A stretch of DNA of 64,000 nt from a virus (lineage: Duplodnaviria > Caudoviricetes): IMG/VR virus record IMGVR_UViG_3300037400_001617. One strand, 5' to 3'. The translations under genes were made by a program, and so were the position numbers. The notes beneath the pieces were generated by a model, which did not search any database, was not told the origin of the DNA, and saw only the letters and a program-made list of their open reading frames with translations. This document shows positions 4,039 through 57,562 of this stretch, piece by piece; within the stretch, counting starts at the first letter, position 1; each line of letters begins with the position of its first letter.

Positions 4039-4074
4039 AAAAAAGAACACTGGGTTTGATCCCAGTGTTCTTTT
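4039..4074. terminator. bidirectional intrinsic terminator
   Basis: AAAAAAGAACACTGGG-TTTGAT-CCCAGTGTTCTTTT. Confidence 0.8.
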
Positions 4075-4084
4075 CTTACTGTGC

Positions 4085-4153
4085 TTAGACTTGGACTTGT
4101 AGCACGTCTTCTGATGGAAATGCATATCCACCACAAGTTTCAAAATCGTCCAT
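4085..4153 (-). CDS. 22-aa small ORF MDDFETCGGYAFPSEDVLQVQV in a structured early transcript
   Basis: Strong SD AAGAAAGGAGGT on the minus strand (about 4163-4174), early motif at 4248-4255, terminator at 4039-4074. Confidence 0.45.
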   Translation of the reverse strand: MDDFETCGGYAFPSEDVLQVQV

Positions 4154-4247
4154 TTTTAGCACACCTCCTTTCTTGTTAGCTATATGTCCCCTTTAAGGAG
4201 GTAGGGGATATATAAGACTACAGAATTCATTTTCTGTAGACATCTTA

Positions 4248-4255
4248 ATAATATA
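4248..4255 (-). promoter_or_regulatory. early promoter motif TATATTAT
   Basis: Plus-strand ATAATATA; same motif as at 6089, 9245, 19756, 24501, 42562 and 57563. Confidence 0.55.
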
Positions 4256-4277
4256 TGCTTCTAAATGCGTACTTTAA

Positions 4278-4302
4278 CGACGGTGGGATTTCCCCACCGT
4301 CG
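4278..4302 (-). terminator. hairpin terminating the RNAP gene
   Basis: CGACGGTGGG-ATTTC-CCCACCGTCG directly after the stop of 4310..6013. Confidence 0.65.
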
Positions 4303-4309
4303 ATTTAAA

Positions 4310-6013
4310 TTAGAATACTGGGTCGATAGGCTTGAATGATGGATCAGGCTGTATAGTGAGGCTATATAGATTCATGATACATTCCTTCGTTACATTACGA
4401 GGACTTATACCATCCATACCTATAAGGTTGATCTTGCTATTTGCAGCTTTCTCCAGTTCAGCATTAGCTTCGATAGTATAGATACCCTTAACTATAGCGG
4501 TATCTCCATCGAAGTCCATACCCATTACATCTATATTACCATTAGAGATAGTAAGAGTTGGAGAGAAGAGAGCAGCGGTGTTTCTTCCGAGATCTTCAGA
4601 TCTGATCTTAGGCCACCACTTATACACTTTACCATCCATCATAACAGGCTCAGTTTCATTAGTAGACTTGATGTTTATCTTGGAAGGATACTGGTTAAGG
4701 TAACGGTCTATAGGGAATCGAGTAATCAGACACATCTTATCTGCAGTCATCTCACATGCAGCAAGATAGAAGAGATCACACCATGTCATAGGTCTTTCTA
4801 TAAGAGGATAGCCTGAATAATCCTTCTGGTCATCTATATGCTCAGATGTAACTTTTCTTCCTTTAAATACTATGAACGGAGTATCTGATGTAGTTTTAAG
4901 TTTCTTCTCTTTCACCATCTTAGCCCATTCAGCTTTATCTATGGGAACTGGTATAGGCTGGAAACGGTTAGAGTATCCATGAACAAATCTCTCTATCTGT
5001 TTCACTATCTCCGTATCAGAGAACATGATCTGATAGTCTTCTATAGGAACAGATATCTCACCACTCGGACCAGTCATGGAATACATAGTCTTACCACCGA
5101 ATTCGTTCTCAAAGAAACGTCTACAGTAGTAGATGATGAATGGCTGGAAGAGTACTATAGCAGCCTCAAGAGGGCATGCTGCATGGTCCATATCAACCAT
5201 GAGGTCTTCTATGTTTTCAACCTTCAGATTGGCAGCAGACATAACAAGACGTACACTATAGTCTACAGTCTTGTACATGACACCCTTCTTTATAATGCCA
5301 GTCTTTCCAGGTAAGTTACCACCAGTTTCTTCACCATTGATTACTGTACCTGCACCGAACCAATCATAGATCTGTTTCAGTGTAACTTGTATTCTACCCT
5401 TAGTAGCATCTGCAAGACTTAGTCCATACTCAGCAGTTTCTCTGAGTGCTTTGGTCGCAATGATAAGAGAGCTGTAGAGCTTATTGATTTCTCCGACGCC
5501 TATACTAGCCTGCTTAGTATCAACGTCTCTATAGTATGGCGGTATAACGGGGCATTTCTTAACCCACATCTGGCTCTTGACTTTGTCAAGAAACTTAATC
5601 TTTGTAGCTCTGTCTTTAGAACTGGATTCTTTGGCAGACCAGTCTATCTTATCGTAGTTTGCTTTGAACCAATTCAGACCAGTATTACCTTCAGGGTCTT
5701 TAACCAATTGTCCTTTAGCATCAATAGAGAAGTTCTCGGTTCCGTGTACTATAGCCTCTACCTTCTTATCTAGAGTACAGAGTATCTTATAGACCAGAGG
5801 ATTGAGGAACCATTCGCCAAGATCTATATATGCATAGATACCAGCTCTTTCAGCTTTAGTAATACCGAAGATCTCATTAGACAGAAGTCCATCTGGTGCT
5901 GGAGTCGGACCGTTAAAGAATACAGGGTTAGTGATCTCTTTACAGTCATTGGCTCTGACAAAGCGTTCTACGTCTAATATACTTATATCGAAATGATTAG
6001 TAGATGAACTCAT
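4310..6013 (-). CDS. multisubunit RNA polymerase beta-prime subunit, N-terminal half (probably virion RNAP)
   Basis: DGLLSNEIFG, PVIPPYYRD, KTVDYSVRLV, TRFP and catalytic GMDFDGD motifs. The late promoter fits a virion-packaged RNAP. Confidence 0.9.
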   Translation of the reverse strand: MSSSTNHFDISILDVERFVRANDCKEITNPVFFNGPTPAPDGLLSNEIFGITKAERAGIYAYIDLGEWFLNPLVYKILCTLDKKVEAIVHGTENFSIDAKGQLVKDPEGNTGLNWFKANYDKIDWSAKESSSKDRATKIKFLDKVKSQMWVKKCPVIPPYYRDVDTKQASIGVGEINKLYSSLIIATKALRETAEYGLSLADATKGRIQVTLKQIYDWFGAGTVINGEETGGNLPGKTGIIKKGVMYKTVDYSVRLVMSAANLKVENIEDLMVDMDHAACPLEAAIVLFQPFIIYYCRRFFENEFGGKTMYSMTGPSGEISVPIEDYQIMFSDTEIVKQIERFVHGYSNRFQPIPVPIDKAEWAKMVKEKKLKTTSDTPFIVFKGRKVTSEHIDDQKDYSGYPLIERPMTWCDLFYLAACEMTADKMCLITRFPIDRYLNQYPSKINIKSTNETEPVMMDGKVYKWWPKIRSEDLGRNTAALFSPTLTISNGNIDVMGMDFDGDTAIVKGIYTIEANAELEKAANSKINLIGMDGISPRNVTKECIMNLYSLTIQPDPSFKPIDPVF

Positions 6014-6039
6014 TGTAGTACCTCCTTAAGTAAGTTGAT

Positions 6040-6051
6040 TATAGAATGGTT
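6040..6051 (-). promoter_or_regulatory. late promoter
   Basis: Minus strand AACC attcta TA. Confidence 0.65.
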
Positions 6052-6088
6052 CATGCTTTAGAATCAGGTTCAAATGCAAGTACGACTA

Positions 6089-6096
6089 TATATTAT
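6089..6096 (+). promoter_or_regulatory. early promoter motif TATATTAT
   Basis: Upstream of the monocistronic gene at 6166. Confidence 0.65.
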
Positions 6097-6165
6097 AAAG
6101 GTGTACAAGAGAGTTAGTGATTCAATGCTCTTGAGTACTAAATACATTATTAAGGAGGATCTATT

Positions 6166-6402
6166 ATGATCAATGGTTACAACACGCAACTCCCGTCAAG
6201 AGAGGCTAAGATGACAGGACAGCCTGTCAGTCTCGAAAGCGTGATGAATGAATTCACATTCATCACTACATCAATCAACGCTGGCTATTTGTCAGCAAAA
6301 GACCCTGCAGTTCAGAAGAGGATAAGAGAACTGCAGCATGATATCACTCATCTGCAGAACGCATATCATCAGGCAGCAAATATGGGCCTGATACAGCGCT
6401 AA
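6166..6402 (+). CDS. small early hypothetical protein
   Basis: 78 aa, SD TAAGGAGG, own early motif and terminator. Confidence 0.8.
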   Translation: MINGYNTQLPSREAKMTGQPVSLESVMNEFTFITTSINAGYLSAKDPAVQKRIRELQHDITHLQNAYHQAANMGLIQR

Positions 6403-6420
6403 GTAGTAGCGCAACCTCCT

Positions 6421-6456
6421 TGATCGGTCCACTGCCCCGTGGACCGATTATTTTTT
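6421..6456 (+). terminator. intrinsic terminator
   Basis: TGATCGGTCCAC-TGCCCC-GTGGACCGATTA then TTTTTT. Confidence 0.8.
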
Positions 6457-6501
6457 GTCGTAGAACATCACTATAATTACACACCCTTGAAAGGAGGACT
6501 C

Positions 6502-7935
6502 ATGATGGGTAGACATTATAGATGTATATACTGCTCTAAGTCTCTTGATAGAGACAAGCTTGTAACCCATATGGAGAAGGAACACTCTGATATGCTTAAT
6601 CCTGATAAGGGATTTACTGCTAATCATGTAGTGTTCGATATATGTAACAACAAACAGCCTGTAGGAGATGCTCGTGGAGTTTGTAGAATCTGTAAGGCTC
6701 CTACTATGTGGAACGAGAAAACTGTTCGTTACGATGCTTTCTGTTCTGATCGCTGTAAATCTGTCGCCAGACAAAATGCAGTGAAGAACATGATGAAAGT
6801 ATATAACAAACCCACTCTTCTCAATGATATGGATCATCAGGAGAAGATGCTCGCCAATAGATCAATCTCTGGTAAGTACAGATGGTCTGACGGAACATAC
6901 AAAACTTACGTAGGAAACTATGAGAAGAAGTTCCTCGAGTTTTGCGATGGGGTCCTTGGAATGGACTCATCAGACCTCGTAACACCTGGTCCTACTTTAA
7001 AGTATGAACATAATGGTGAAGAACACGTCTGGATCACTGATGCTCTTTATCTCCCTTATAACCTCGTCTTTGACATTAAGGATGGTGGAGATAACAAGAA
7101 CACCAGAGAGATGCCAGAGTACCGATCTAAACAAATTGCTAAAGAAAAGATGATTACTGATCAAGGCGAGTATAGCTATATTAGGCTTACTAATAACGAG
7201 TTTGTTCAACTGCTCGATATATTCGCTGAGCTCAAAAAGATCAGCATGGAACCTGATCCGCATACTATATCCAGGATCCATGAAAGCCTGATTGGAGGTG
7301 CACTTCCTCCTGCAGGTGCTACGGATGTTAATCCACACCCTTACCTGTTGAACTATCATACCTTTGCAGGTGGTGATGAGGGCTATGCTCTCTGCAACGA
7401 TATAGCTTCAGATTGTTGTCTGACAGTGGATGATAACGGTAAGATCAAGAAGAAGAACACCAAGAAGCTCCTAGCTCAGAAGGAATGTATTGTATATAAG
7501 TACAAGGGCACTAACGGAGAACAGATCATGAGAGAAGCCTATTCAAAGTACAAGTCTCAAAAGACTGTAAGAATGGACTACTTTGCTAAGTTGGTATCTG
7601 AGATGTCTGACATATTAACGCCAGACCAACTCGACTACTCCCCAGTCCTTGAACAAGTTTCTATATCTTCACTCGGAGAGAAGTTCACATCTCTTTGTGT
7701 TACCATAGAAACTGCAGTAAACGAACTAGTTGGTAACAGAACTCTCTCTGTACCAGTAGTAGATCCATACAAGATGGAACAGTGTCGACACATACTGAGA
7801 AACTATAAGAATCTCGTCGTGAAAGAATGTGTCGATGGTGGATACTATGTGGAGAACACCATATCGAAAACCAGGTCTAGACTCATCGATTCTATAGAGG
7901 ATATCGACAAATCCCTCTTAGATTCAGTGAGCTAA
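6502..7935 (+). CDS. Zn-finger plus PD-(D/E)XK (TnsA/T4 gp4-like) nuclease, possible head-completion protein
   Basis: CIYC..H...H zinc finger, CRIC..FCSDRC, then YE...ITD...LVFDIKDGG nuclease motif. Late promoter at 6464-6475; SD AAAGGAGG before ATG 6502. Confidence 0.6.
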   Translation: MMGRHYRCIYCSKSLDRDKLVTHMEKEHSDMLNPDKGFTANHVVFDICNNKQPVGDARGVCRICKAPTMWNEKTVRYDAFCSDRCKSVARQNAVKNMMKVYNKPTLLNDMDHQEKMLANRSISGKYRWSDGTYKTYVGNYEKKFLEFCDGVLGMDSSDLVTPGPTLKYEHNGEEHVWITDALYLPYNLVFDIKDGGDNKNTREMPEYRSKQIAKEKMITDQGEYSYIRLTNNEFVQLLDIFAELKKISMEPDPHTISRIHESLIGGALPPAGATDVNPHPYLLNYHTFAGGDEGYALCNDIASDCCLTVDDNGKIKKKNTKKLLAQKECIVYKYKGTNGEQIMREAYSKYKSQKTVRMDYFAKLVSEMSDILTPDQLDYSPVLEQVSISSLGEKFTSLCVTIETAVNELVGNRTLSVPVVDPYKMEQCRHILRNYKNLVVKECVDGGYYVENTISKTRSRLIDSIEDIDKSLLDSVS

Positions 7936-7974
7936 ACATATAAGTAAAATCTACAACCCGAAGGAGGTTACATT

Positions 7975-8442
7975 ATGAACTTAAGCACAATGATTCTTCA
8001 GGAAGCTTCTAAGGCAGATCAGAAGATTCTTGATGATATCGAAAGAGATCAGATAGCACATGACTACCAGGATACTTTGGCTGGTCTGGCTACAGTAGGA
8101 AGTATCACTTTCCCAGCATCAGAAGTCCCGATCATAAAGGACGAATGTGGTGAGTGTGGAGAGTGCGGCGAATGTAATGAGAGCTACATGGTAGAGTACG
8201 ACATGCTCTATAAGTTCATGGAAGCTAACAATATCGACGAAGAGTACGAAGCTCATGCAGCACTGTGTGAGGAGTACTCACTTGAACAGGCTCAGCTTGT
8301 AGTAGTTGCAGAATGCGACGAAGTAAACAAGGGCCTTCTTAATAATGCACTTAAGACTGGAGAACTCGGCGTAGCAAGACGTTATTGCTCAGGTCTCTGC
8401 AATCTTCTCAATCACGGAATCCGTGTAATGAAGAAGGGTTAA
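7975..8442 (+). CDS. late hypothetical protein with (ECG)3-EC repeat
   Basis: 155 aa, late promoter at 7935-7946, SD GAAGGAGGT. Confidence 0.8.
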   Translation: MNLSTMILQEASKADQKILDDIERDQIAHDYQDTLAGLATVGSITFPASEVPIIKDECGECGECGECNESYMVEYDMLYKFMEANNIDEEYEAHAALCEEYSLEQAQLVVVAECDEVNKGLLNNALKTGELGVARRYCSGLCNLLNHGIRVMKKG

Positions 8443-8522
8443 TTATTACACTAACGGCGACATCATAGTAGGGACCAAGGGTGGTTGCCCTTGGTCCAAT
8501 TCTATGCCTAGGAGGAATCTAT

Positions 8523-9239
8523 ATGAACAATAACCCGTTAGATAGTATCAAACTGCCCGAACTTCATAAAGTCACAATTCCCTCAATCGATAAAGACAAG
8601 ATACCACAGGAGAAAGTGACTATCTCTAAAGAACAGGAAGTTGAATGGGCTAAAGACCTTATACTCAGAGCAACAAACAATACGTATCTGCTGGAAGAGG
8701 GAGAGAAAGATCCTTCTATCGAGATGAAAGAGAAGCTCGATAAGATGTCAGATGATGAGGTACTTGAGATGGCTGAAAAAGTTGGAGAGTGTATCCACAA
8801 GATGGTTCAAAGAAAGAAAGAAGAAGAAGCAACTTTCAGTATGAAAGCTAAGGCAGAACTACATGAAGAGGATGGAGAGATCGTAGCGAATCCTACCAAA
8901 GTCATTAGCTTCAGTCCTGTAGATATAAATGCGGAGTTACTTTCACCTATAATTAAGGAAAGACTTAGTGCAGAACTTGGTATAGGAGAGATTCCAGATG
9001 ATCTTGAGACACAAGTACATCTGTGCAGAACATGGCTCAAGTCTAAAAACTTCTTTGAGCTTCCTGTTGAAGAGATGTATGATTGGCAAGTTATACTGCT
9101 CACGACATCAGCTTTAGACGATAAGCTTGAAATGTATCATAATCTTGCAAGTATGACCACTAAAGATGTCGAGGAAGCTTCTAAGGATTATGAGACTATG
9201 CTTAATAACTTCAATACTGTATTCGGTAAACAAGACTGA
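8523..9239 (+). CDS. hypothetical protein
   Basis: SD GGAGGA before ATG 8523; late-like motif GACA-N6-TA at 8459-8470 followed by a 5' hairpin. Confidence 0.8.
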   Translation: MNNNPLDSIKLPELHKVTIPSIDKDKIPQEKVTISKEQEVEWAKDLILRATNNTYLLEEGEKDPSIEMKEKLDKMSDDEVLEMAEKVGECIHKMVQRKKEEEATFSMKAKAELHEEDGEIVANPTKVISFSPVDINAELLSPIIKERLSAELGIGEIPDDLETQVHLCRTWLKSKNFFELPVEEMYDWQVILLTTSALDDKLEMYHNLASMTTKDVEEASKDYETMLNNFNTVFGKQD

Positions 9240-9244
9240 CATTA

Positions 9245-9252
9245 TATATTAT
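9245..9252 (+). promoter_or_regulatory. early promoter motif TATATTAT
   Basis: Precedes the RNase H operon and is followed by a long 5' hairpin. Confidence 0.65.
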
Positions 9253-9310
9253 AGAGGCGAGTCCCAAGGATATGTCCTTGGGGCATCTCTATTGAAAGGA
9301 GGAATGAGGC

Positions 9311-10147
9311 ATGATTTCATATGCCGACGAAGGGAGCAATCATCCCAAACACGACGTCGTGTGTATTTTTACTGATGGTGGTATACACGACGGACAATCA
9401 TCAGCATCATCAGTTATAGGGCTTCTTAGAAACGATGGAAGTAATGAGCCCTGTTTGGATAAGATAGAAATCTTCTCCAAGTATCACGACAACTCTACAA
9501 ACAACATCGCAGAGCTGTCGGCTATTCTCTTCGGTATAGAGAAAGCCTTTGAGCGTTATAAGAGTTCTGACGATCATACTTACGCATATCTGATCTTCTC
9601 GGACTCTGAATACGCAATTCATTCTTTAACAGAGTGGGTCTTCGGATGGTACAAGACCTACACATGTGAAAAGAAGAATGGCATCGTAGTTCCTTACATG
9701 CTCACTAAGTGTGGTACGCCAGTTAAGAACTGCGAGATTATCAGTGCTATCATAGGAATGATAGTACATCATCAGGATTGGTTTACCTTCCTACAATTTG
9801 TTAATGTGAAGGGTCACACTTGGAAGAAGGGTGGCGTAGAAGAACAGATGGCATACTATAGAAAGGCTAACCAGACTGATATAACAAAGAAAGAAGCTAT
9901 CTTCGTGACGAAGTACAATCACATCGTCGACAGAGTAGCTTCTAATGTTTGTGATTGGGTCCAGGACAATGGATTCGACATAAACTTCGACGACAATGGG
10001 GATCCATGTATGCGTTTCACTGTAAAGGGTATGGACTTCAATGTCTATGATTCCGTAAATGACGGTGTAAGATACTCAAAGTATATGATACTCACTGATG
10101 CTATAATGAGATTGTATAGAGAGATCTTAAACCAGACGCCGTTCTAA
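9311..10147 (+). CDS. rnhA: ribonuclease HI
   Basis: IFTDGG, TNNIAELSAI, IFSDSEY, VKN, VKGH and NHIVDRVA motifs. Confidence 0.92.
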   Translation: MISYADEGSNHPKHDVVCIFTDGGIHDGQSSASSVIGLLRNDGSNEPCLDKIEIFSKYHDNSTNNIAELSAILFGIEKAFERYKSSDDHTYAYLIFSDSEYAIHSLTEWVFGWYKTYTCEKKNGIVVPYMLTKCGTPVKNCEIISAIIGMIVHHQDWFTFLQFVNVKGHTWKKGGVEEQMAYYRKANQTDITKKEAIFVTKYNHIVDRVASNVCDWVQDNGFDINFDDNGDPCMRFTVKGMDFNVYDSVNDGVRYSKYMILTDAIMRLYREILNQTPF

Positions 10148-10164
10148 TGAAAGGAGAAAGAACT

Positions 10165-11098: not shown

Positions 11099-11102
11099 TC
11101 TG

Positions 11103-11393
11103 ATGGATATGGATATATTTGAACGTGGATATACAGCTTGTACAATGTTAGGGGTTGATCCTAGCACTGTTATTGGTGTAAGATCTATATCTACAGAGGA
11201 GAAAGAAGATGTCGGAATAGCATTGGATTGTGGCGATTGTATACACGTTCGCATCGACAAGTTTATGAAATGCTACAAGAAAACCGACGATATCTCTATA
11301 CTCGTAGAGATGTACAAGGACGGTATCGAAAGATCTCATATAGCTCAGATCTTCGATATATCGATAAAGACTGTTAACGCATTCACAAAATAA
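11103..11393 (+). CDS. helix-turn-helix protein
   Basis: GIERSHIAQIFDISIKTVNAF. Confidence 0.65.
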   Translation: MDMDIFERGYTACTMLGVDPSTVIGVRSISTEEKEDVGIALDCGDCIHVRIDKFMKCYKKTDDISILVEMYKDGIERSHIAQIFDISIKTVNAFTK

Positions 11394-11406
11394 TGGAGGT
11401 AATCAC

Positions 11407-13116: not shown

Positions 13117-13120
13117 GACA

Positions 13121-13205
13121 CAAAGGAATGGCTAGAGCACAACGCTCTAGCCAACCCAATTTATTTTTTAGAAAGGAAGTGCACATGAACACATCTTCAA
13201 CCCTT
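13121..13205 (-). ncRNA. candidate ~85-nt late small RNA
   Basis: Minus-strand late motif AACA taatga TA at 13205-13216, a 5' hairpin containing CACUUCCUUUCU, then the bidirectional hairpin at about 13125-13157. Confidence 0.4.
13125..13169. terminator. bidirectional terminator
   Basis: TGGCTAGAGC-ACAAC-GCTCTAGCCA with TTATTTTTT on plus and TTCCTTTG on minus. Confidence 0.7.
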
Positions 13206-13284
13206 ATCATTATGTTACCTGAACAGACTAAATCACTATTGTCTGAACTTTATAATAATCAAATCAGATAAAGGAGGGCTTAAC

Positions 13285-17201: not shown

Positions 17202-17214
17202 GGAGGTGATATGA

Positions 17215-18837: not shown

Positions 18838-18892
18838 CATTCTATGACACTGAACTATACTATAATCTATGAAAGGAGATGAAAAGTGTCAA

Positions 18893-21029: not shown

Positions 21030-22583
21030 TTACGCAACCTTTGGCTCAAGATCAAGACAAGACTGAATGTCGTCAAGATCCTCTTCTGTATATGAATCCA
21101 TAGAAAGGTTAACGAAGCTGTTGAGACAGATGAGATTGTTGGTCTGAAGAGATACATTAGTCTCAAACAGACCAGTGTTTCTGGAGATCTGACCAACGTA
21201 ACGTGGATTGAATACTTCCATACAAGCCTTGAGGAACTCCTGATTGATGATGTACATGCAGTTCAGAGTATCACCATCAAAGTCTGCATTAAGACCAGAG
21301 AGAATCTCAAGTGGCAGTGACATTGCATAAGAGTCAAAGTGAATACCAACAACCTGCATCTGAAGAACTGACAGAGACCAGATAGATGGATTACGATTGA
21401 TAAGTACACCGACATACTCGGAGTTGACTATATTCATCATAATGTCATAGATCTCTTTAGACGGATTGATAGTTGCCATGAACCACTTCTGATATGCAAT
21501 GTGACGAGGCATTGTCTTTGAGAGAATATTGACTATTCTGAACTCAAGAAGCTCTACCATAGATGCATATGGGAGTATTACCTGATCTATCTCAAGATCA
21601 CTGTTCGGCACGATTACTGATCTCGCACAGAAGTTATATCTGCCTCCTATAGTAGAACGTACCAGTCCCTTCTTATGAGAAAGCTGCTTCTCAAGGTCTG
21701 TATAGATATCCATCCACTTAGACTGCATTCTATACAGAATCTGTTTAGCAGGTTTACCAGTACGTCTAGAGACAAGCTGGTTACGATTGACTCTTGTAGC
21801 CTGAGCCGCAAGAATATTATACAGTGAGTTATTACCATCAAAGTTGAACTGACTGTCGTCAAGGTTGAATGGTCTTAACTGTGTAGTATAGACTGGAATG
21901 GAGTGGGTGAACACGATGTTCTTATACTCCATGATGTGGTCATAGTAATCCATCTTCTCTGGCTTCTTGGCATGCTTGTTCTTATAGAACTCCATGATCT
22001 CGTCAAAACGATCACGGAATGCAAGTATACCAATTCCAACGAATGGACTACTCTTACTAGGTTTCACCTCGATAGGTTTACCGTCTACATCTATCTTATC
22101 ATCATTATCGATGATTGCATCGAACTCTTTGGCTCCGATAAATGCAGAGATAGACTTGAACAGGTTGGGATGAATCAGACAATACTTTTCGTCTATACAT
22201 ATCCATCCAAACTTCTCAAAGTCATCACCCATGTAGTCTACTGGAGTATGACAATACTCACAGATCTGTCCATAGTGTAATCTACCATTAAGATGATTGC
22301 ACTTACATCTGTAGCGATTAGAGTATGCATCCTGATCATTCAGAGTGGGACCGAAGAATGTCGAGAAGATACTTTTGTCGCTCTTAAGGTCTTTCTTGAT
22401 GTCCTGACGCTTCTCGATGATCATACCCTTACCTCTCATAAGGTCAGCTTCTCTTTCCTTATCGAGGTCTATGATTTCGAGAGACGTCTCATATACGTAT
22501 TGCTGTTGTGTTTTGGGGTCTGATGATACGGGTGTTATTGAAAGGGTTGTTCTCCTTTCACGTCTGTCGTAGTCGCTTAACAT
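21030..22583 (-). CDS. multisubunit RNA polymerase beta-prime subunit, N-terminal half (probably non-virion RNAP)
   Basis: Zn ribbon CKC...CEYC, GGRYNFCARSVIVP, LINRNPS and catalytic NADFDGD motifs. Confidence 0.92.
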   Translation of the reverse strand: MLSDYDRRERRTTLSITPVSSDPKTQQQYVYETSLEIIDLDKEREADLMRGKGMIIEKRQDIKKDLKSDKSIFSTFFGPTLNDQDAYSNRYRCKCNHLNGRLHYGQICEYCHTPVDYMGDDFEKFGWICIDEKYCLIHPNLFKSISAFIGAKEFDAIIDNDDKIDVDGKPIEVKPSKSSPFVGIGILAFRDRFDEIMEFYKNKHAKKPEKMDYYDHIMEYKNIVFTHSIPVYTTQLRPFNLDDSQFNFDGNNSLYNILAAQATRVNRNQLVSRRTGKPAKQILYRMQSKWMDIYTDLEKQLSHKKGLVRSTIGGRYNFCARSVIVPNSDLEIDQVILPYASMVELLEFRIVNILSKTMPRHIAYQKWFMATINPSKEIYDIMMNIVNSEYVGVLINRNPSIWSLSVLQMQVVGIHFDSYAMSLPLEILSGLNADFDGDTLNCMYIINQEFLKACMEVFNPRYVGQISRNTGLFETNVSLQTNNLICLNSFVNLSMDSYTEEDLDDIQSCLDLEPKVA

Positions 22584-29332: not shown

Positions 29333-29785
29333 TTATATACCAGTTTGTCCGTTGTGTTCCATAACGAAGTTTGTTACTCTGAAGTACACTCTTTTGGCTA
29401 TTATATCAGTGATAGCATCCTCATTGTAGAGGATACATAACTGCTCATATAGAGCTTCTGAAAGTCTTTGTGAGACGAGAGTACAGATATCTTTGTTGAT
29501 CTGAATCTCTTCCTCTTCTTTGATATAGTAATCACTCTTATAAGCAAGATTGAGTATAGTGAACTCCTCAAAACATTGCTCTACAACAAGATCGAGCTTC
29601 TCATCTATCTTGTTATCAATGTCGAGTGTGGTGATATGTTTATATCTTTCAAGTTCCACGTTGTTATCTTTAGCCGTAGCCCATACCTTTATTGCAGTCT
29701 TAGCTAAACTCCTGAGTGACAGGAGGTAGATCATACTAAAAACGATAAGGACTTTGACCAGGAATTGTATCGATATGACTGGCAT
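29333..29785 (-). CDS. hypothetical membrane-anchored protein
   Basis: N-terminal hydrophobic segment; SD GGAG before ATG 29785. Confidence 0.7.
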   Translation of the reverse strand: MPVISIQFLVKVLIVFSMIYLLSLRSLAKTAIKVWATAKDNNVELERYKHITTLDIDNKIDEKLDLVVEQCFEEFTILNLAYKSDYYIKEEEEIQINKDICTLVSQRLSEALYEQLCILYNEDAITDIIAKRVYFRVTNFVMEHNGQTGI

Positions 29786-30461
29786 AAGTTTTCTCACTCC
29801 AATTCTTTACTTCTTCAGCTACTTCGAGAAGTCCATCATCTACTGAGTCTACTTCTTCGTAAGCTGTGCGTATATAGTAAAGCACCTTGGTACAAATATC
29901 TGGAGTGATGCCGTTGTAGTATCTCTTGAAGAGTTCTGTCCACTTTCCAAATACCTGATTAGGGTGCGTATAAAAGTTATCGGCGTTATGATAGAGCTGA
30001 TGCACAGTTTTACTCATCATAACTATTGGTACCATGTTGTTCGCATGAGCAAATCTGAGCTCTGCTACTACATGAGGTACTGTTACGTATCCATAAGTAT
30101 TAAGAAAGTGTTCGGTGATCATAACTGTAATGTCGAAGATCGTTAAGATACAATGGTTCATTTCCAATGTAGCCATGTTCGAATCGATATTGTGCAGTAC
30201 TTGACAATGATCAAGACCCATCTCCATCAAGTATGCTTTGTAGTTCTTATAGAATCTGAGTCCTCTAAAGAGATTGATAGCACTATGTATGAATCTATTA
30301 TAGAGGTCTACATCTATCATGGAATCCTTAGTCTGCATCATAGGAAGTTCATACGGTGAACTTGGAGAACACAGTGTAGGATTACCATTATTAAGATACG
30401 CTGTTACATCTGGGAAGGGCTGTCCATTACCCTTATATGTAAGATCTAATGTTTCATTCAT
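29736..30461 (-). CDS. HNH-like conserved jumbo-phage protein (paralogue of 63304..63996)
   Basis: LEMNH...IVMMSKTVHQLYHN; late motif at 30486-30497. Confidence 0.6.
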   Translation of the reverse strand: MNETLDLTYKGNGQPFPDVTAYLNNGNPTLCSPSSPYELPMMQTKDSMIDVDLYNRFIHSAINLFRGLRFYKNYKAYLMEMGLDHCQVLHNIDSNMATLEMNHCILTIFDITVMITEHFLNTYGYVTVPHVVAELRFAHANNMVPIVMMSKTVHQLYHNADNFYTHPNQVFGKWTELFKRYYNGITPDICTKVLYYIRTAYEEVDSVDDGLLEVAEEVKNWSEKTYASHIDTIPGQSPYRF

Positions 30462-30504
30462 ATTCTATGCCTCCTTAGCACGTATTATAAGATAGTTTAA
30501 AGAC

Positions 30505-30703
30505 AAAAAGAGGGGAGGAGGCCGTTAAGCCTCCTCTGCGAAGGGGGTGAATGGTTCTAGATAAAGCCAAATTAAGCACCACTTGAAGAATGGATGTCGT
30601 TACGCCTACGACAACCGAGGGCTCAATAGGCAATACATGAGTTGAACCGAATGCTAGAATGATTATAGTCACGTTAGCGAGACGATCCGTCAACATCCCG
30701 CTC
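30505..30703 (-). ncRNA. candidate ~200-nt structured late small RNA
   Basis: Late motif AACA ctatag TG at 30703-30714; successive hairpins, two with G-U pairs on this strand; terminator GAGGAGGC/GCCUCCUC plus U-tract; no SD for the overlapping 76-aa ORF. Confidence 0.65.
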
Positions 30704-30731
30704 ACTATAGTGTTATAGGAGTTGTAAAGTA

Positions 30732-50928: not shown

Positions 50929-50961
50929 TGTATTCTTCTAACAAACTCACAACAATATAGT

Positions 50962-51110
50962 ATGGCGGTGCAGCTATGCACTATTAGACTCTCACAGCAG
51001 TTCTCTATGTTAAAATGGACAGTTATGAGTCTAGACGAGCGATTCTTTAAGAGTTGAATCTTAAGCAGTTACCGCCACCACCTTTCCGTAGTGGAAATGT
51101 CCACTACGGA
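50962..51110 (+). ncRNA. candidate structured late RNA with tRNA-like acceptor stem and 3' ACCA
   Basis: Late motif AACA atatag TA at 50951-50962; GGCGGUG/UACCGCC closing stem then ACCA; internal UAGACUC/GAGUCUA helix; downstream hairpin at 51085-51110; no ORF. Confidence 0.65.
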
Positions 51111-51194
51111 TAAGTTGTCTTAAAACAACTTTTGGCTACATATCATACCTTTGAGTCAAGAACAATACTAAGACTCAGAAAGGAAATCGAAACA

Positions 51195-51911
51195 ATGAGC
51201 GATAACATTGTAAACCCCTTTGGTATTGTGAATCCTGTATCTGGTGAAGTAACCGAACAGGAAGTTAATCCTACCAAAGAGGATCTCAAACTTATCAAAG
51301 AAAAGGAAAAGAGACTGGCAGAAGAGGCTAAGAAGAACCTCAAGACAGTCAAAGTTGCAGATGGTACAGCAACAACTAAGAGACCTGCTAAGAATAAGAG
51401 AGCTCCACAGGCTCCAGTAGTAGCAGGTAAACCACAACAGCAGAATGTTCCTCAGAAGCCTAAGCAGATACAGTCTGTAAAAGAGTATCTTGTGTGCTTT
51501 GTATTTGAGGGACAGGATATGACTGAACCAGACTGGACACGTTCCAGATGGATAACTGCAGAAGGAAGAGGTTTATGCTTTGCTAAGACAGTAAGCATGA
51601 TTCATGATATAACCTCTGAAAATGAAGACTTCTATGATCCTATCGATTATGAGGAGTCATTCGTGTTATGCACGGGAGTCAAGTATGAAGAGAAGGTTCC
51701 GCTCCTTCAGTTCATCAGACTCTGCATCGAGAAAGAAGCCAAAGCAATAGACAAGTATATGCTTGACTATATGCAGGCAGTCCTCAAGTCATACGAAACT
51801 GGTTCGTTTGAACCTATTGACGAATGGGTCAAGGTTAACAATGATACACCTTGTACTCCACAGGTTCAGCAGACCATGTATACATCACTTGAGGGTGAAG
51901 ATATAAACTAA
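51195..51911 (+). CDS. hypothetical protein
   Basis: SD AGAAAGGA before ATG 51195. Confidence 0.8.
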   Translation: MSDNIVNPFGIVNPVSGEVTEQEVNPTKEDLKLIKEKEKRLAEEAKKNLKTVKVADGTATTKRPAKNKRAPQAPVVAGKPQQQNVPQKPKQIQSVKEYLVCFVFEGQDMTEPDWTRSRWITAEGRGLCFAKTVSMIHDITSENEDFYDPIDYEESFVLCTGVKYEEKVPLLQFIRLCIEKEAKAIDKYMLDYMQAVLKSYETGSFEPIDEWVKVNNDTPCTPQVQQTMYTSLEGEDIN

Positions 51912-51933
51912 ACTAGCCAAGGAGGACACTAAT

Positions 51934-52701
51934 ATGGCACAGAACAACAAACCAAGACAGCCTCGTAAGACGTGGTTTGATAACCAGGCCGAGAGGAAAG
52001 GACAGAGGTTTCTGGACGGTTGGGCCAATGGTCAGGACAGAGACTTCATATTACCAGATAAAAAGATAAGAGCCATCGATAATATCCTGAGAGATATTAA
52101 AGATGGCCAGATAAATCAGATTAGGGATATAACTCCAACAAGGTTACTTAACAAGGACCTTCTGTATTCCATCACGCAGGTATGTAAAGCGAGACTGGAT
52201 TATTTTAACCGTATGTATAATGCGTTTGTTATGCTCGACATGGTAAGCTACTGCGTTCTGACACAGAAACGGCTTTATGAACTGACAGAAGGAATAACAG
52301 ACGTAGATGAAAAAATGAAGCATCTTGAAAAGATTGGTGTTGACAGAAACTATATTTGGCTCGTCGGCACTATGCCTTTAGACGGAGCATATGATCCCAT
52401 GACCAACACTTACAAAGGTGGTATACCTTATACAAGAGAGCTTCAGCAAGCACACAATCACCCAGCATATCAAACGCAGATATGGATGGCTGAGAGGTAT
52501 AAAACCATGTATAAGATCATGTACAATATCTTCTCAAAAATCTATGATGGTGTGGCACATAACACGCTCAAACAGTCGGATATAACATTTTATGAGCAGA
52601 TTCAGTCAGCAATGAAAAACGCTGAAGAGCATAAGTTCCCAAATGGAATGAAGGTGCCGCTTGACTTCAATGTGCTGACTGGATACGACTACATGCTTTA
52701 A
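51934..52701 (+). CDS. hypothetical protein
   Basis: 255 aa, SD AAGGAGG. Confidence 0.8.
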   Translation: MAQNNKPRQPRKTWFDNQAERKGQRFLDGWANGQDRDFILPDKKIRAIDNILRDIKDGQINQIRDITPTRLLNKDLLYSITQVCKARLDYFNRMYNAFVMLDMVSYCVLTQKRLYELTEGITDVDEKMKHLEKIGVDRNYIWLVGTMPLDGAYDPMTNTYKGGIPYTRELQQAHNHPAYQTQIWMAERYKTMYKIMYNIFSKIYDGVAHNTLKQSDITFYEQIQSAMKNAEEHKFPNGMKVPLDFNVLTGYDYML

Positions 52702-52749
52702 CCAGGCACTCAACTTATCTATAATACTAACCAAAGGAGGTTAATAGTT

Positions 52750-53286
52750 ATGGATAAAGCAAAACTTATAGCTCTTAGAAAAGAGCTTCATCAGCTTACC
52801 AATATAGCTAGAAAGAATCCCGATCAGAAGATAGATGTACCGCTCATCATAGCAATCGATCACGGTACTACTGTAATCGACGAGATCGATAGTTGTATAA
52901 TGTGGGATGATGATAACGAAGTATTGTACTCAATCGAGTACAATAACAACGTGAACGACAAGCTGTACAATATCTGCCCGATGAGAATCAGAGCATTTCA
53001 GTACAGCACGATCGTTTCAGTAACTGCGAGAGCAGATCTGAATATGCTTATGGACTTCTTCGACTCAAAGATTTCTGACGGAATCACGAATGAGACTACT
53101 AAGGAGAAGTACAGAAAGGCATACATGGATATGAGAGATCCGAGAACCTTCGCTGCAGGACATCCTAGTCCGTCTACTTCAAAGGATCTTCCTTTGAATC
53201 AGGTAGATAGATTCAACGAAGACTTCCCGCTCATGAATCCATCAGCTATCATGGCAAACCTCGAGAACTCAAATCCTGAGGTATAA
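52750..53286 (+). CDS. late hypothetical protein (candidate sRNA target)
   Basis: 178 aa, late motif at 52712-52723, SD AAAGGAGGT. Confidence 0.8.
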   Translation: MDKAKLIALRKELHQLTNIARKNPDQKIDVPLIIAIDHGTTVIDEIDSCIMWDDDNEVLYSIEYNNNVNDKLYNICPMRIRAFQYSTIVSVTARADLNMLMDFFDSKISDGITNETTKEKYRKAYMDMRDPRTFAAGHPSPSTSKDLPLNQVDRFNEDFPLMNPSAIMANLENSNPEV

Positions 53287-53370
53287 ACACAATAACAATT
53301 GTATACAATAGAGGGGTACGAGAGGATCCCTCTTGTATAAATCAAAATTCTTTTAAGGAGGACATCGACA

Positions 53371-54447
53371 ATGATGTACAATTCTGTTTTCAACACACCC
53401 AACGGAGGAATCTATCCTTCAACAGTAATCAACCCCGTTAATGAGAAGCCTCAGGTTTCTACTCTTAACGAAAAGGAAGAGAAGATCCTCGCTTCAACAG
53501 GCGGAAACGAGTTCGTTTTCACAGAGGAAGAAATGGCAGTAGCTCACTGCAACCACGCTCCATCAAACAACGGCCAGAATGTTCTGGAAGTAGAAAGCGA
53601 TGACGGAGTTGTTGCAAAGTTCCGTTGCAGACGCTGCCACACTACATTCGAAGTGGACAGAAGAATCACTGAGAGTGATGTAAGCAAGGTGTGCGAGGTA
53701 ATGCATAATATACTCAACACCATCAAAACATATCTTGGATCTGAGATCTCACCTCAGTTCGCAAGAGACGTGTTCAGCATTGATGCAGCTTTCCCGAAGC
53801 TGCCTAAGCTCTACTCACAGGCTAAGAAGAGCATCGAGCAGAAAGTCGCTGCACTCAATCAGCAGTTCCAGTATGCAAATCCTGGTGCTTACTTCGGCCA
53901 GGCAAATCCATACCAGACTGCATTCGCAAACGGTCTGAACAGTCCGTCAGCACAGTACCAGTACAACCAGTACGCTGCAGCTGCATATCCTACCTTCAAT
54001 GGTAATGGAATGCCTCAGCAGATGTATGGTTACGCAGGACAGCCTGGAATGCCTGTAAATCCATATGCAGCTCAGACACCTCAGATGGTAAATCCTTATG
54101 CTCCTCAGCAGGGATATGCACCTTCTCCTGTTGGCGGTCTGATGACTGCAGAAAATCCGCTGTATACTTCACAGACTAGCGGAGTAGCTCCTGAGGGTAC
54201 TGGAACTTATTCAGTTCCTGCTCCCAACTCAGGAATGATGTTCAACAGCGTTGTTCCCTCAAACGTAAATGTTGCTCCTGCAGCTCCTATGGCAGGTACA
54301 ACAACACAGGCAACACCTCAGATGAACATCCCTACAGTAGGAAGTCCTGCACCTGCACTTCCTCCTGTAACAAACCCTACACCTGCAGCTGCTCCTGCTC
54401 CTAATGTAGCAACTCCTGTAGGTAACACAAGCACAATCACACTGTAA
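53371..54447 (+). CDS. Zn-binding domain plus long P/Q/A/N/Y-rich disordered tail
   Basis: CNH...CRRC; the C-terminal 190 aa or so are almost devoid of charged residues; late motif at 53294-53305. Confidence 0.8.
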   Translation: MMYNSVFNTPNGGIYPSTVINPVNEKPQVSTLNEKEEKILASTGGNEFVFTEEEMAVAHCNHAPSNNGQNVLEVESDDGVVAKFRCRRCHTTFEVDRRITESDVSKVCEVMHNILNTIKTYLGSEISPQFARDVFSIDAAFPKLPKLYSQAKKSIEQKVAALNQQFQYANPGAYFGQANPYQTAFANGLNSPSAQYQYNQYAAAAYPTFNGNGMPQQMYGYAGQPGMPVNPYAAQTPQMVNPYAPQQGYAPSPVGGLMTAENPLYTSQTSGVAPEGTGTYSVPAPNSGMMFNSVVPSNVNVAPAAPMAGTTTQATPQMNIPTVGSPAPALPPVTNPTPAAAPAPNVATPVGNTSTITL

Positions 54448-54547
54448 TTCATATTGCCCTATAGGGAGGTGAGAGATTCTCTCACCTCCTTATTTTTATC
54501 GATCCTACAACAACACTATAATCAAATTAGAAAGGATTGATGCTACA

Positions 54548-56908
54548 ATGGCAACAGTGAAAAAGAAGAAGACCGAATCCCTTGAAGAACAAATCAAGAA
54601 TTATGGGTCGCAGATCAAGGAGATTAATGATATTGTCGATCAGGTTCGACAGACTCCTGATGTGTATATAGGACCTTTAGGAAATAAGGGATTCCTAACG
54701 ATGATTAGAGAGATCTTTCAGAATGCTCTTGATGAGATACTGAAGGGTGTAGCTCTTGATATGAATATATCGCTCACATTCGATGAGCGCACTAACGCGG
54801 TGACTGTTGCAGATCATGGTCGTGGAATACCTCATGGTATGATAGGCAAGATCTTCGGTCAGACGCATACAAGTTCCAACTATGAAAAACAGCCTGGTGT
54901 ATATTCTGCTGGAAAGAATGGTTGTGGCGGTGCTGTCACAAACATGCTTTCTCATAGTATGATTATAGATTCATACGTTTTAGGCGAAGGCCGACACGCC
55001 GAATTCGTAGAGGGACATCTCTGGAAGAAAGGCGAGGTAGCAATCCCCAAGAAGGATTGCAAAGGGAAACAGGGATCAGTGATCACATTCATTCCATCTG
55101 AGACATGTTTAAACGTTGACAAGTTTAGTTTGACTTGGGAGAATGTGCATGACTTGGTTGCTTCCATAGTTCCGTTGGCACCAATAGGAACAACTTGTTC
55201 ATTCGATGGAGTGGACATGAATGGAGTTATCCATCACGAGGATATAGTCAATCAAGATGGGGTGATAACCCATTTGATCAACATGACCCAGAATCCGTTC
55301 ATTGCTCCTATCGTTGTACAAAACGATAATGGAACAATGAAGATGGATTTATGTTTGACGTACGATACAAGTGTCGAGAACAACTTTGAAGACTATCAGA
55401 GCTTCAACAACACTTGTCCTACTGAGGGCGGAAAGCATCTTGATGGTGCACTCGATGGAGTAGTACGATTCTTCAAAGAGTACATGAACAAGATATACCT
55501 TGTAAACGTAAAAAGCAAGGTTAAGCTCGTATGTGGAATCAACGACATCAAACAAGGACTCAAACTGGTCATAAGTACATTCCATCTCTATGCTATGTAT
55601 ACTGGCCAGAGTAAGGAGATACTCAGCAATGAGGATATCTTCCCATTCGTTTCGCAGACTACTTATGAAGGTCTTCAGGCTTGGAGTCAGAACAATACTA
55701 CTGATCTTCAGAACCTGTGTAAGTACTTCAGAAGCATAATCGAACTTAGACTGAAGCAGGATAAGGACAAGGTGAAGTTGGCAAACTCTTTTAAGTCATC
55801 GATCCTTTCGGGCTATCCTGATAAGTTCAAGAAACCTAATATGAAGAAAGGTTTCGAGTTGATTATAGTTGAAGGAGATTCAGCTTTCGGTTCTGCAGAG
55901 AACTCGAGAGACAATAACACTCAGGGTATCTACCCCATAAGAGGTAAGTTACCTAATGCCTTCGAAAAGCCAGCGAGCGTAATCTTCCAAAACGAAGAGG
56001 TAGCATCCATCTTCCAAATCATAGGTGGAGGCTACGGTAAGAACTTCGATATATCAAAGGTCAACATATCAAAGCTTATATTCATGGCTGATGCTGACCC
56101 TGATGGTAAACATATCTTGACACTTCTCCTCAGGCTGATCGCACTGTATGCGAGACCGCTTTTGGAGGCAGGTATGGTTTACGCGGCAATACCGCCGTTA
56201 TTTGGAGTTCCTATGGGTAAGGATAAGTACAAGTACTTTGTCGATAAGAAGGACTACTATCAGTATATACAGAAGAAGTTCTCTACAGACAATGTCCTTA
56301 CCGATATCAACGGAAAGGCTATGAGTACAAAGAGTATCGTAGACCTTCTCGACAGAACAGATAACTATATCAGCGTTCTTGAGAGTACTGCTACTAACTA
56401 TGCAATTGATCCTAGTCTGCTTGAGAGTATCTTAATCAATAAAGATCTCTCACCCAAGAAGTTCAAGTCTGCTATAGAAAAGCAGTATAGATTCATGAAT
56501 GTACGTACTGAGAACGGTATAACTGTTCTTGATGGTTTGGCTGGAAACAAAGCACATCTGGTATTCCTTACACCTCGTCTCTTAGCAGCGTGTGGTATGG
56601 TTATGAGTTATTTGAACGCTAATGAACCGTACTACAGACTCAATGGAGAAGTGGTGTCACTGTATGGACTCAGAATTGCATTCGGCAAATACGAACCATC
56701 ACATCTGCAGAGATTTAAAGGTCTCGGCGAGATGAATGCTAAGATGCTTGGTATAAGTACATTAAGACCTGACGGAGATAGACTTCTTGTTAGATACACG
56801 TTTGAGGATATCAATCGTGAGATCAATGAGATGAGAAAGCTCAATGATAACAAGGAACTTCTCCTCAAGGGTATTGGAAAGATACCTAGACAGGACATCT
56901 TAGGATAA
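54548..56908 (+). CDS. gyrB: type IIA topoisomerase (gyrase-like) B subunit
   Basis: EIFQNALDE, DHGRGIP, GKNGCG, VEGDSA, PIRGK, DADPDG and RFKGLGEM motifs. Confidence 0.95.
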   Translation: MATVKKKKTESLEEQIKNYGSQIKEINDIVDQVRQTPDVYIGPLGNKGFLTMIREIFQNALDEILKGVALDMNISLTFDERTNAVTVADHGRGIPHGMIGKIFGQTHTSSNYEKQPGVYSAGKNGCGGAVTNMLSHSMIIDSYVLGEGRHAEFVEGHLWKKGEVAIPKKDCKGKQGSVITFIPSETCLNVDKFSLTWENVHDLVASIVPLAPIGTTCSFDGVDMNGVIHHEDIVNQDGVITHLINMTQNPFIAPIVVQNDNGTMKMDLCLTYDTSVENNFEDYQSFNNTCPTEGGKHLDGALDGVVRFFKEYMNKIYLVNVKSKVKLVCGINDIKQGLKLVISTFHLYAMYTGQSKEILSNEDIFPFVSQTTYEGLQAWSQNNTTDLQNLCKYFRSIIELRLKQDKDKVKLANSFKSSILSGYPDKFKKPNMKKGFELIIVEGDSAFGSAENSRDNNTQGIYPIRGKLPNAFEKPASVIFQNEEVASIFQIIGGGYGKNFDISKVNISKLIFMADADPDGKHILTLLLRLIALYARPLLEAGMVYAAIPPLFGVPMGKDKYKYFVDKKDYYQYIQKKFSTDNVLTDINGKAMSTKSIVDLLDRTDNYISVLESTATNYAIDPSLLESILINKDLSPKKFKSAIEKQYRFMNVRTENGITVLDGLAGNKAHLVFLTPRLLAACGMVMSYLNANEPYYRLNGEVVSLYGLRIAFGKYEPSHLQRFKGLGEMNAKMLGISTLRPDGDRLLVRYTFEDINREINEMRKLNDNKELLLKGIGKIPRQDILG

Positions 56909-56913
56909 CCAAT

Positions 56914-56946
56914 AGAAGGTGTGGAGCAATCCGCACCTTCTTTTTT
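56914..56946 (+). terminator. intrinsic terminator (GGAGCAATCC family)
   Basis: AGAAGGTGTGGA-GCAA-TCCGCACCTTCT then T-tract. Confidence 0.8.
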
Positions 56947-57033
56947 GTGCGTAATATTTTAATGACAATCCTACATATATATAATCGAACCCAATTGGGC
57001 GATATTAAAATACATCCAAAGGAGAGTATCATT

Positions 57034-57477
57034 ATGAACAACAACAGAAACCCTAAGTACAACAAGAAAGGCTATTCAAAGCCTAACCCGAACACCACAA
57101 GAGTAGCAAAGTATACTACGGCTGAGTTCGAACTTGGTTCTTCTGACAAGTACGACTCTATAATCGACACACTTATTGCTATCATTGATTCATGCAGCTT
57201 CGACTGCTGCGCTATCACTGCTAAGATGAGAAAGTCCGCTTTCTTTGACAGCTCTGAATCAAAGGGAATGATCGACCTCGGCGAGATCAGAGAGTTCAAC
57301 AATGATACAAAGAAGTTCACTGTATCTATGCCTACAGCTACATATACAAAGCTTAAGGACGTCATCAACAACGGCAGTCTTAAGATCGTACCTGCAGTGA
57401 GACTCAACAAGGACACTGGTGAAGTTAAGTTCATCTCTTGCTTCGAAGCTGTTCTTCCTTCCACTGCAAACGAATAA
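57034..57477 (+). CDS. hypothetical protein inserted between gyrB and gyrA
   Basis: SD AAAGGAG before ATG 57034; flanked by terminators. Confidence 0.8.
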   Translation: MNNNRNPKYNKKGYSKPNPNTTRVAKYTTAEFELGSSDKYDSIIDTLIAIIDSCSFDCCAITAKMRKSAFFDSSESKGMIDLGEIREFNNDTKKFTVSMPTATYTKLKDVINNGSLKIVPAVRLNKDTGEVKFISCFEAVLPSTANE

Positions 57478-57562
57478 GACAACTTCTATCATTTCAAAAC
57501 CATCCTTATATAGGAATTCGGTGGAGGTCCCTAGTGGCCTCCACCAATTCCCGTGTCTGTTG

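Follow-up and report, generated by a model that had tools for sequence, protein, structure and literature searches.

Anti-Shine-Dalgarno tracts near terminators of an AR9-like phage: a candidate cis-acting leader and putative small RNAs rather than one network

Introduction

Giant phages with RNA polymerases (RNAPs) of their own make small RNAs (sRNAs) of unknown function. Do some of these RNAs act on ribosome-binding sites? The question is raised by a 64,000-nucleotide (nt) stretch of the IMG/VR virus record IMGVR_UViG_3300037400_001617, referred to here as the window, in which a first-pass annotation had picked out six pyrimidine tracts complementary to the Shine-Dalgarno (SD) sequence. It had read them as a network of anti-SD RNAs, placed just before terminators in sRNAs and 3′ untranslated regions (UTRs) and timed by two phage RNAPs. 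All six tracts carry the sequences ascribed to them, except that the span given as 13170–13183 is too wide by two bases (TG), the true extent being 13170–13181:

6414–6423, plus strand: anti-SD tract ACCTCCTTGA
13170–13181, minus strand: anti-SD tract CACTTCCTTTCT, a 12-mer
30541–30551, minus strand: anti-SD tract TTCACCCCCTT
51075–51085, plus strand: anti-SD tract CCACCACCTTT
57498–57507, plus strand: anti-SD tract AACCATCCTT
4195–4203, minus strand: anti-SD tract TACCTCCTT

Five of these lie 8–25 nt 5′ of a stable hairpin and the sixth (4195) within a hairpin loop, as had been described. For an anti-SD sRNA network, we find neither a solid placement rule nor a conserved shared target. Rather, the set of tracts mixes at least three things, namely a cis-acting leader element, strands of helices and a few conserved tracts without a partner. 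The account that we favour, to which we give about an even chance, is that the six tracts are real and do not constitute one system: the tract at 4195 would belong to a cis leader, others to probable late sRNAs, one to a 3′ UTR whose partner was not found, and some possibly to chance.

Placement of anti-SD tracts relative to terminators

Only two of the six tracts contain the core CCUCC, the other four being one-mismatch or looser matches. Every 12-mer was scored by its duplex energy against AAAGGAGGUGAU, with the flank of a hairpin defined as the 35 nt before it. Hairpins were found genome-wide and kept if they followed a gene on the same strand, which left 64 on the single 122.5-kb contig of which the window forms bases 20064–84063, 37 of them in the window. 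Strong tracts beside hairpins on the strand opposite the genes are in many cases the complements of real SDs and thus had to be excluded from the count. A U-tract was tried as an indicator of the terminator strand and dropped, as many sense-strand hairpins here have none.

Tracts scoring −10.8 or lower precede 4 of the 64 sense terminators, where dinucleotide shuffles of these flanks give 1.3 (P = 0.04), and tracts of −9.5 or lower precede 8, against 3.2 expected (P = 0.017), at thresholds that were picked post hoc, after the sites were known. A positional test within sense, co-directional intergenic DNA places 3 of 15 anti-SD tracts in terminator flanks, where 1.0 would be expected (P = 0.075); of the other 12, eight are the 3′ arms of GGAGG/CCUCC-type terminator stems. 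Across about 115 kb of the relatives' loci, 2 of 65 sense terminators have a tract that reaches −9 or lower, and both are homologous to flagged units. The notion that anti-SD tracts are commoner before terminators than in shuffled DNA is thus left with an enrichment that is marginal, post hoc and without replication in relatives. It follows that there is no reproducible placement rule, and a genome-wide rule of anti-SD tracts ahead of terminators is not supported.

Terminator stems here are often made of an SD-like and an anti-SD-like arm (GAGGAGG...CCUCCUC, GGUGGAGG...CCUCCACC), for example at 30511, 54478, 56930, 57531 and 60039, among others. Rfam covariance models gave no match in the window at gathering score; the sole hit at E ≤ 1 is unrelated (BSnc120 at 56896–56985, scoring 24 bits where the gathering score is 114). 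RNAalifold covariation was run on three to four close sequences, which hold too few changes to count.

The tract at 4195 lies in the leader of an early micro-ORF

By comparison of lineages, the tract at 4195 is the strongest signal of the six sites. It belongs to a compact cassette, downstream of the RNAP β′ terminator, with the following elements (ORF, open reading frame):

4039–4255, minus strand: early micro-ORF cassette, with a promoter match to the AR9 early consensus and a conserved ORF start and hairpin
4248–4255, minus strand: early promoter core TATATTAT, followed by N6 and a G at 4241
4216–4241, minus strand: leader hairpin 1
About 4181–4213, minus strand: leader hairpin 2, with the anti-SD UACCUCCUU in its loop (4195–4203)
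4162–4171, minus strand: SD AAAGGAGGUG
4085–4153, minus strand: 22-codon ORF, beginning MDDFETCGGYAF
4039–4076: bidirectional terminator that ends the cassette

The leader hairpin with its anti-SD loop is found in seven lineages, whose RNAP β′ identity ranges from 72 to 93%, and is built on five different stem sequences, while the loop carries CCUCCUU, CUUCCUU, CUCCUU(U) or UCCUCC in seven of seven. The peptide start MDDxETxG is common to six other lineages, with peptides of 10–22 residues, and the changes at the N-terminus are mostly synonymous; in L006 (relatives are given L numbers), the first nine codons hold four synonymous changes versus one non-synonymous. The loop precedes the SD of its own micro-ORF by about 25 nt, and the best 10-mer scores −10.5 to −14.3 against that SD region across all seven lineages. 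Among the eight early leaders that were compared, such a tract is present in this one only.

The first-pass annotation had included this tract in its proposed set of anti-SD RNAs. The unit has an ORF, however, and does not belong with the ORF-less sRNAs. Because the conserved tract adjoins its own SD, in the leader of a translated micro-ORF, cis action is to be preferred over a trans sRNA. From the observed layout and conservation, we infer that the loop most likely masks its own SD in cis. The transcript would be a small early mRNA: made from a virion-RNAP-type promoter, it would contain two hairpins, a strong SD and an ORF of 10–22 codons, and end at a terminator. Its CU-rich loop would occlude the SD of the same mRNA, either via a loop–SD pseudoknot or through a refolding in which anti-SD and SD form a helix, and such masking would set or switch translation of the micro-ORF. 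In the minimum-energy fold of the full leader, the SD pairs with the loop tract itself in L026 and L027 and with an upstream CUCUUUCU tract in L025.

Phage identity and promoter motifs

The split RNAP β and β′ genes of the window match phrog_2986 (E 3e-74; 4310–6013, minus strand) and phrog_2987 (E 5e-58; 21030–22583, minus strand), and gyrase B, gyrase A and a DnaB-like helicase are also encoded. The closest relatives in culture, AR9-like phages that infect Staphylococcus, Bacillus and Listeria, reach an identity of only about 31%; near-identical DNA was looked for in cultured phages and none was found. Close uncultured relatives, with an RNAP β′ that is 91–93% identical, are on contigs of about 230 kb, so that the 122.5-kb contig represents part of a jumbo phage. 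The DNA runs containing the stretch are labelled as bovine or other animal gut metagenomes, and a Firmicute host is assumed. The window has a G+C content of about 40%, a strong AAGGAGG-type SD precedes most genes in a simple gene model, and a tRNA/tmRNA scan of the window returned none. A single-base difference, at 8317, distinguishes the window from the 122.5-kb contig.

In AR9, the early promoter consensus is AAATATATATTAT-N6-G and the late consensus AACA-N6-T(A/G) (PMC5312081). Motifs of the same type, early ATATATTAT-N6-G and late AACA-N6-T[A/G], are present upstream of genes here. The early core TATATTAT is intergenic in 10 of its 15 copies and the late motif AACA-N6-TR in 32 of 152, against an intergenic share of the DNA of 7.9%, and the majority of the copies aim at a gene start. 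Thus, the assignment to an AR9/phiKZ-like phage is borne out by the split RNAP genes together with AR9-type motifs enriched in intergenic DNA, and the early/late promoter reading also holds, the AR9 consensus (PMC5312081) applying here to copies that mostly face gene starts.

A second promoter-like motif, AACT-N4-5-TATAAT(A), precedes the SD of several genes by about 20 nt:

30484–30497, minus strand: AACT-N4-5-TATAAT(A) motif
52712–52725, plus strand: AACT-N4-5-TATAAT(A) motif
18853–18866, plus strand: AACT-N4-5-TATAAT(A) motif
13246–13259, plus strand: AACT-N4-5-TATAAT(A) motif

The copy upstream of gene 29736..30461 is invariant among relatives, and the motif may represent a variant late promoter or a middle promoter.

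Three late units without an ORF

Three units that run from a late promoter to a terminator without a credible ORF had been proposed, and three are found: 13216–13118 (minus strand), 30714–30503 (minus strand) and 50951–51125 (plus strand). No ORF frame is conserved in them, and their position is kept in relatives.

13118–13216, minus strand: late unit inside a plus-strand gene block (13.2k), with late motif, tract and hairpin kept in relatives
13205–13216, minus strand: late motif AACATAATGATA
13170–13181, minus strand: tract CACUUCCUUUCU in an RNA of about 85 nt
13125–13157, minus strand: hairpin of the 13.2k unit
30503–30714, minus strand: late ORF-less unit of about 200 nt (30.6k), with promoter and terminator kept in relatives
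30703–30714, minus strand: late motif AACACTATAGTG
30541–30551, minus strand: linker tract UUCACCCCCUU
30515–30536, minus strand: terminator with U-tract
50951–51125, plus strand: late ORF-less unit of about 160 nt (51.0k), with late motif, closing helix and 3′ hairpin
50951–50962, plus strand: late motif AACAATATAGTA
51083–51112, plus strand: 3′ hairpin with a poor U-tract

Since ordinary late promoters are close to start codons (typically within about 30 nt of the gene start), these units stand out by running 85–200 nt to a hairpin instead. Promoter motif, spacing and hairpin are preserved in diverged lineages, which is consistent with the three being probably small non-coding RNAs as in other giant phages. 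The flagged tract would be a mostly unpaired linker in the 30.6k RNA and mainly a helix strand in the 51.0k RNA. Beyond the window, at coordinates 92704–93128 and 95871–96382, two intergenic stretches of 425 and 512 nt contain several late motifs and many hairpins, and may hold further sRNA units.

The late motif, the pyrimidine tract and the hairpin of the 13.2k unit are retained on the minus strand in L004, L025 and L026 with similar spacing. The tract reads CACUUCCUUUCU, CAUUUCCUUUCU or CAUUUCUUCCAC; L025 retains it and so, more weakly, does L026, where alignment of the flanks is lost; the minus-strand hairpin of L026 has a GAAA loop. The predicted probability of the tract being unpaired, P(unpaired), is 0.35–0.59. 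The 13.2k RNA would be a perfect antisense of the plus-strand intergenic transcript, and its simplest role would be as an antisense to plus-strand read-through. In AR9, seven late promoters drive antisense transcription (PMC5312081). As in those cases, the AACA-N6-T(A/G) promoter at 13205–13216 (minus strand) is directed against the local genes; the AR9 antisense transcripts oppose genes, however, whereas the 13.2k unit opposes an intergenic stretch (PMC5312081).

In the 30.6k unit, hardly any change is seen among four close relatives in the promoter, in the 5′ hairpin or in the core, which is about 100 nt long; the stretch that separates this hairpin from the core has indels. In L015 and L017, whose flanking protein is 83% and 75% identical, promoter and terminator are in place and the inner sequence is changed. 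The tract itself is CACCCCC(C)UU in L008, L010 and L011 and UAUCACCCC in L017, and is absent in L015; its linker is mostly unpaired (P(unpaired) 0.54–0.76). The complement of the 30.6k RNA resembles the SD-start region of gene 52750..53286, with 25 of 31 positions identical between 30541–30571 and 52734–52764 (both plus strand), a match reached by 0 of 150 shuffles and by 2 of 82 natural anti-SD-bearing segments. As a conserved target, this gene was rejected, the cognate pair ranking 40, 81 and 45 of 114 in three sister lineages, and the match could be the relic of an inverted duplication.

Near this unit, a gene of about 150 codons at 29333–29797 (minus strand) overlaps the end of gene 29736..30461 by about 50–60 nt; it is called in all of the relatives' contigs, though absent from the simple gene model used for the window. 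In a more distant relative (L018; 241-codon protein, 66%), a gene with a Sigma70_r4 domain (L018:1440-2078) stands upstream of the homologue, and the sRNA unit is absent.

The 51075 tract had been flagged as an anti-SD sequence and turns out to be mostly paired. The 5′ end of the 51.0k RNA, AUGGCGG, pairs with CCGCCA (51072–51077), with a four-base overlap with the flagged tract, whose CUUUCC part is base-paired at the foot of the 3′ hairpin. The closing helix of L013 has an altered 3′ strand with pairing preserved, and in the most distant lineage the linker contains CCUAGAUUA; the tract is retained in most lineages. Structure therefore accounts for much of the tract, as a strand of the RNA's own closing helix and of the terminator base. 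An ORF from the 5′ AUG would have 31, 10 or 7 codons, depending on the lineage. For the 238-codon protein of 51195..51911, no relatives were found among viral contigs.

Two tracts in 3′ untranslated regions

The two remaining tracts follow genes directly:

6403–6450, plus strand: 3′ UTR of the 78-codon gene 6166..6402, in which ACCUCCUUGA (6414–6423) abuts the terminator 6421–6450 (7 U)
57478–57547, plus strand: 3′ UTR of the 147-codon gene 57034..57477, in which AACCAUCCUU (57498–57507) ends 10 nt before the terminator 57518–57547

At 6414, CCUCCUU (DNA CCTCCTT) is invariant in three close lineages, and the terminator stem shows compensatory changes. In both L025 and L026, the terminator comes directly after the stop codon and the tract is absent. 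The tract is lineage-specific and may be due to chance.

At 57498, AC(U)UCCUU or CUCCUU is present in six of six lineages, with a small hairpin on its upstream side and the terminator downstream. This upstream hairpin is an entirely different one from lineage to lineage and is missing from the window, the stem of the terminator varies too, and close relatives have CCCCUCCU added right after the stop codon. On this comparison, the tract looks like a selected 3′ UTR element, for which a partner was not found. In a read-through transcript, the 51075 and 57498 tracts might pair in cis with the following gene's SD; on inspection by eye, no covariation accompanies the complementarity beyond the SD core, and such pairing is not supported. 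RNA-library contigs covering 57007–57496, from two runs of one study, both stop at 57496, that is, 20 nt after the stop codon and before the tract; these ends are probably an assembly break, because strains diverge there.

Competing explanations

We consider it unlikely that phage sRNAs and 3′ UTR fragments with a single-stranded anti-SD act in trans to repress mRNAs of phage or host, with the two phage RNAPs setting their timing. Such a set would fit the persistence, in diverged lineages, of the 13170, 30541 and 57498 tracts and of that in the 4195 loop, the mostly unpaired 30541 linker, the one early and three late promoter motifs ahead of the units, the nominal enrichment before terminators and the 25/31 match that no shuffle reached. 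However, the enrichment is marginal and post hoc and, homologues apart, is absent from the 65 terminators of relatives, the 25/31 match is lost in three sister lineages, the role of the 51075 tract is structural, some lineages lack the 6414 tract (L025 and L026) or the 30541 tract (L015) and CCUCC is confined to two of the six tracts. In addition, the anti-SD seed pairs, as judged by duplex energy, with about half of the 114 phage start regions, so that the seed alone confers no specificity. A duplex-energy screen of these 114 regions, with a check of the best match in sister lineages, found no conserved trans target. It is likewise improbable that several RNAs exposing an anti-SD like the 16S rRNA tail act in trans at the ribosome-binding sites of phage or host mRNAs, one of them early, peptide-coding and loop-displaying, two or three of them late, with 3′ UTR fragments as possible further members.

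A somewhat less unlikely alternative, though still a doubtful one, is that all tracts save that of the 4195 leader are functionless: they would match a loose motif by chance, or be incidental to helix strands and to pyrimidine-rich spacers near GGAGG/CCUCC-type terminator stems. The loose definition, with mismatches in four of the six tracts, the P values of 0.04–0.075, the eight of 12 other sense intergenic tracts that form 3′ arms of terminator stems, the helix strand at 51075, the lineages that lack the 6414 or 30541 tract and the tract-free terminators of relatives all point in this direction. Against this, the 57498 tract is kept in all six lineages though the adjoining hairpin is replaced, the 13170 tract persists where its flanks are unalignable and the 30541 tract is kept in L017, at an expected rate per flank of about 8% or less.

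That the opposite strand is the functional one, the tracts being complements of real SDs that drive small ORFs, is very improbable. The complement of three tracts had been said to read as an SD followed by ATG; it does so at 13170, 30541 and 57498, and in relatives this is retained only at 13170. There, the plus strand reads AGAAAGGAAGUGCAC-AUG, with the ATG at 13185 opening a mini-ORF, the SD-like part is present in all lineages examined, the ATG is present in close lineages and in L025, and the neighbouring genes are on the plus strand. Yet neither the frame nor the length of the mini-ORF is constant (it has 28, 18 or 14 codons and in L025 is reduced to ATG-TAA, with the stop codon directly after the start), and three diverged lineages retain the minus-strand late motif at 13205–13216. 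Relatives lack the ATG at 30541 and 57498, and no start codon follows at 6414, 51075 or 4195. We dropped the mini-ORFs on the grounds of a missing or unconserved ATG or frame, leaving them as a minor possibility at 13170 only.

Several observations weigh against our own account of a cis leader among otherwise separate elements. The 13170, 30541 and 57498 tracts are retained in four to five of nine distant checks, against about 8% expected, and this retention shows some selection, which is left partnerless in our account. The minimum-energy fold, computed without pseudoknots, leaves the SD of the 4.2k leader open in the window, L006, L003 and L004, and a conserved loop display is also how trans-acting CU-loop sRNAs look, so that the 4195 loop may have an additional role in trans. 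Relatives number three to seven lineages per locus, which makes covariation statistics thin. A metatranscriptome contig (50894–51368) crosses the 3′ hairpin of the 51.0k unit, and because it bridges into the next gene, this unit may be a long structured leader; the RNA data are assembled Logan contigs of four RNA-labelled runs, patchy, from which strand, ends and levels cannot be read.

Significance and comparison with known systems

The main value of the analysis is negative, in that neither the genome-wide rule nor the network is supported and the sites are to be treated singly. Were the tracts at 4195, 13170, 30541 and 57498 to bind ribosome-binding sites, they would offer a first mechanistic handle on the sRNAs of the AR9 branch, and translational control would be layered on the switch between early and late polymerase. 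The early micro-ORF cassette, with its conserved peptide start and conserved anti-SD loop on a stem that is free to vary, is directly testable. A full-text literature search for jumbo-phage sRNAs with anti-SD seeds returned nothing direct.

In Firmicutes, sRNAs with CU- or UCCC-rich loops, such as RNAIII, RsaE and SprD of S. aureus and LhrC of Listeria, block SDs; they bear the motif in multiple copies and act in trans on proven targets, and RNAIII also codes for a small peptide. The RNAs considered here would be similar to RNAIII, RsaE and LhrC in displaying a C/U-rich anti-SD in a hairpin loop or in a linker beside the terminator, and the 4.2k unit is peptide-coding like RNAIII. They are distinct in having a single tract per RNA and no conserved target found, and in that the best case adjoins its own SD.

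Leaders that mask an SD in cis include translational operators, RNA thermometers and pseudoknots of the S15 and gene 32 type. The 4195 element shares with them an anti-SD that lies in the same 5′ UTR, shows complementarity to the downstream SD and persists while the stem covaries, with both open and closed folds possible. Conservation of the anti-SD in the form of a loop sets it apart, as masking of the simple kind would not need this. In the icaR mRNA of S. aureus, a UCCCCUG in the 3′ UTR pairs with the SD in its own 5′ UTR; the 57498 and 6414 tracts resemble it as pyrimidine anti-SD sequences in a 3′ UTR shortly before a terminator. The c4 antisense RNA of phages P1 and P7 is processed from the transcript of its own target and has two defined target boxes. 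It offers the precedent of a phage-encoded small RNA that covers the ribosome-binding site of a phage mRNA, although such a pair was not found here.

For giant phages, ONT-cappable-seq of the Pseudomonas phage 201phi2-1 revealed 11 sRNAs, three of them intergenic and eight the product of promoter-proximal termination; one keeps its position in different genera, their functions are unknown, and phiKZ has an sRNA upstream of gp182 (PMC11512511). The main text of that study contains neither "Shine-Dalgarno" nor "ribosomal binding" (PMC11512511). The 201phi2-1 and phiKZ sRNAs were seen as transcripts, in Pseudomonas hosts and with late promoter motifs that differ from those here, whereas the present units are recognized by motifs and conservation alone (PMC11512511). 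Like those sRNAs, the late units span less than 250 nt from promoter to terminator, have no ORF, lie in intergenic regions or 5′ UTRs and are conserved in position relative to homologous genes, and in both cases the phage has two multisubunit RNAPs (PMC11512511).

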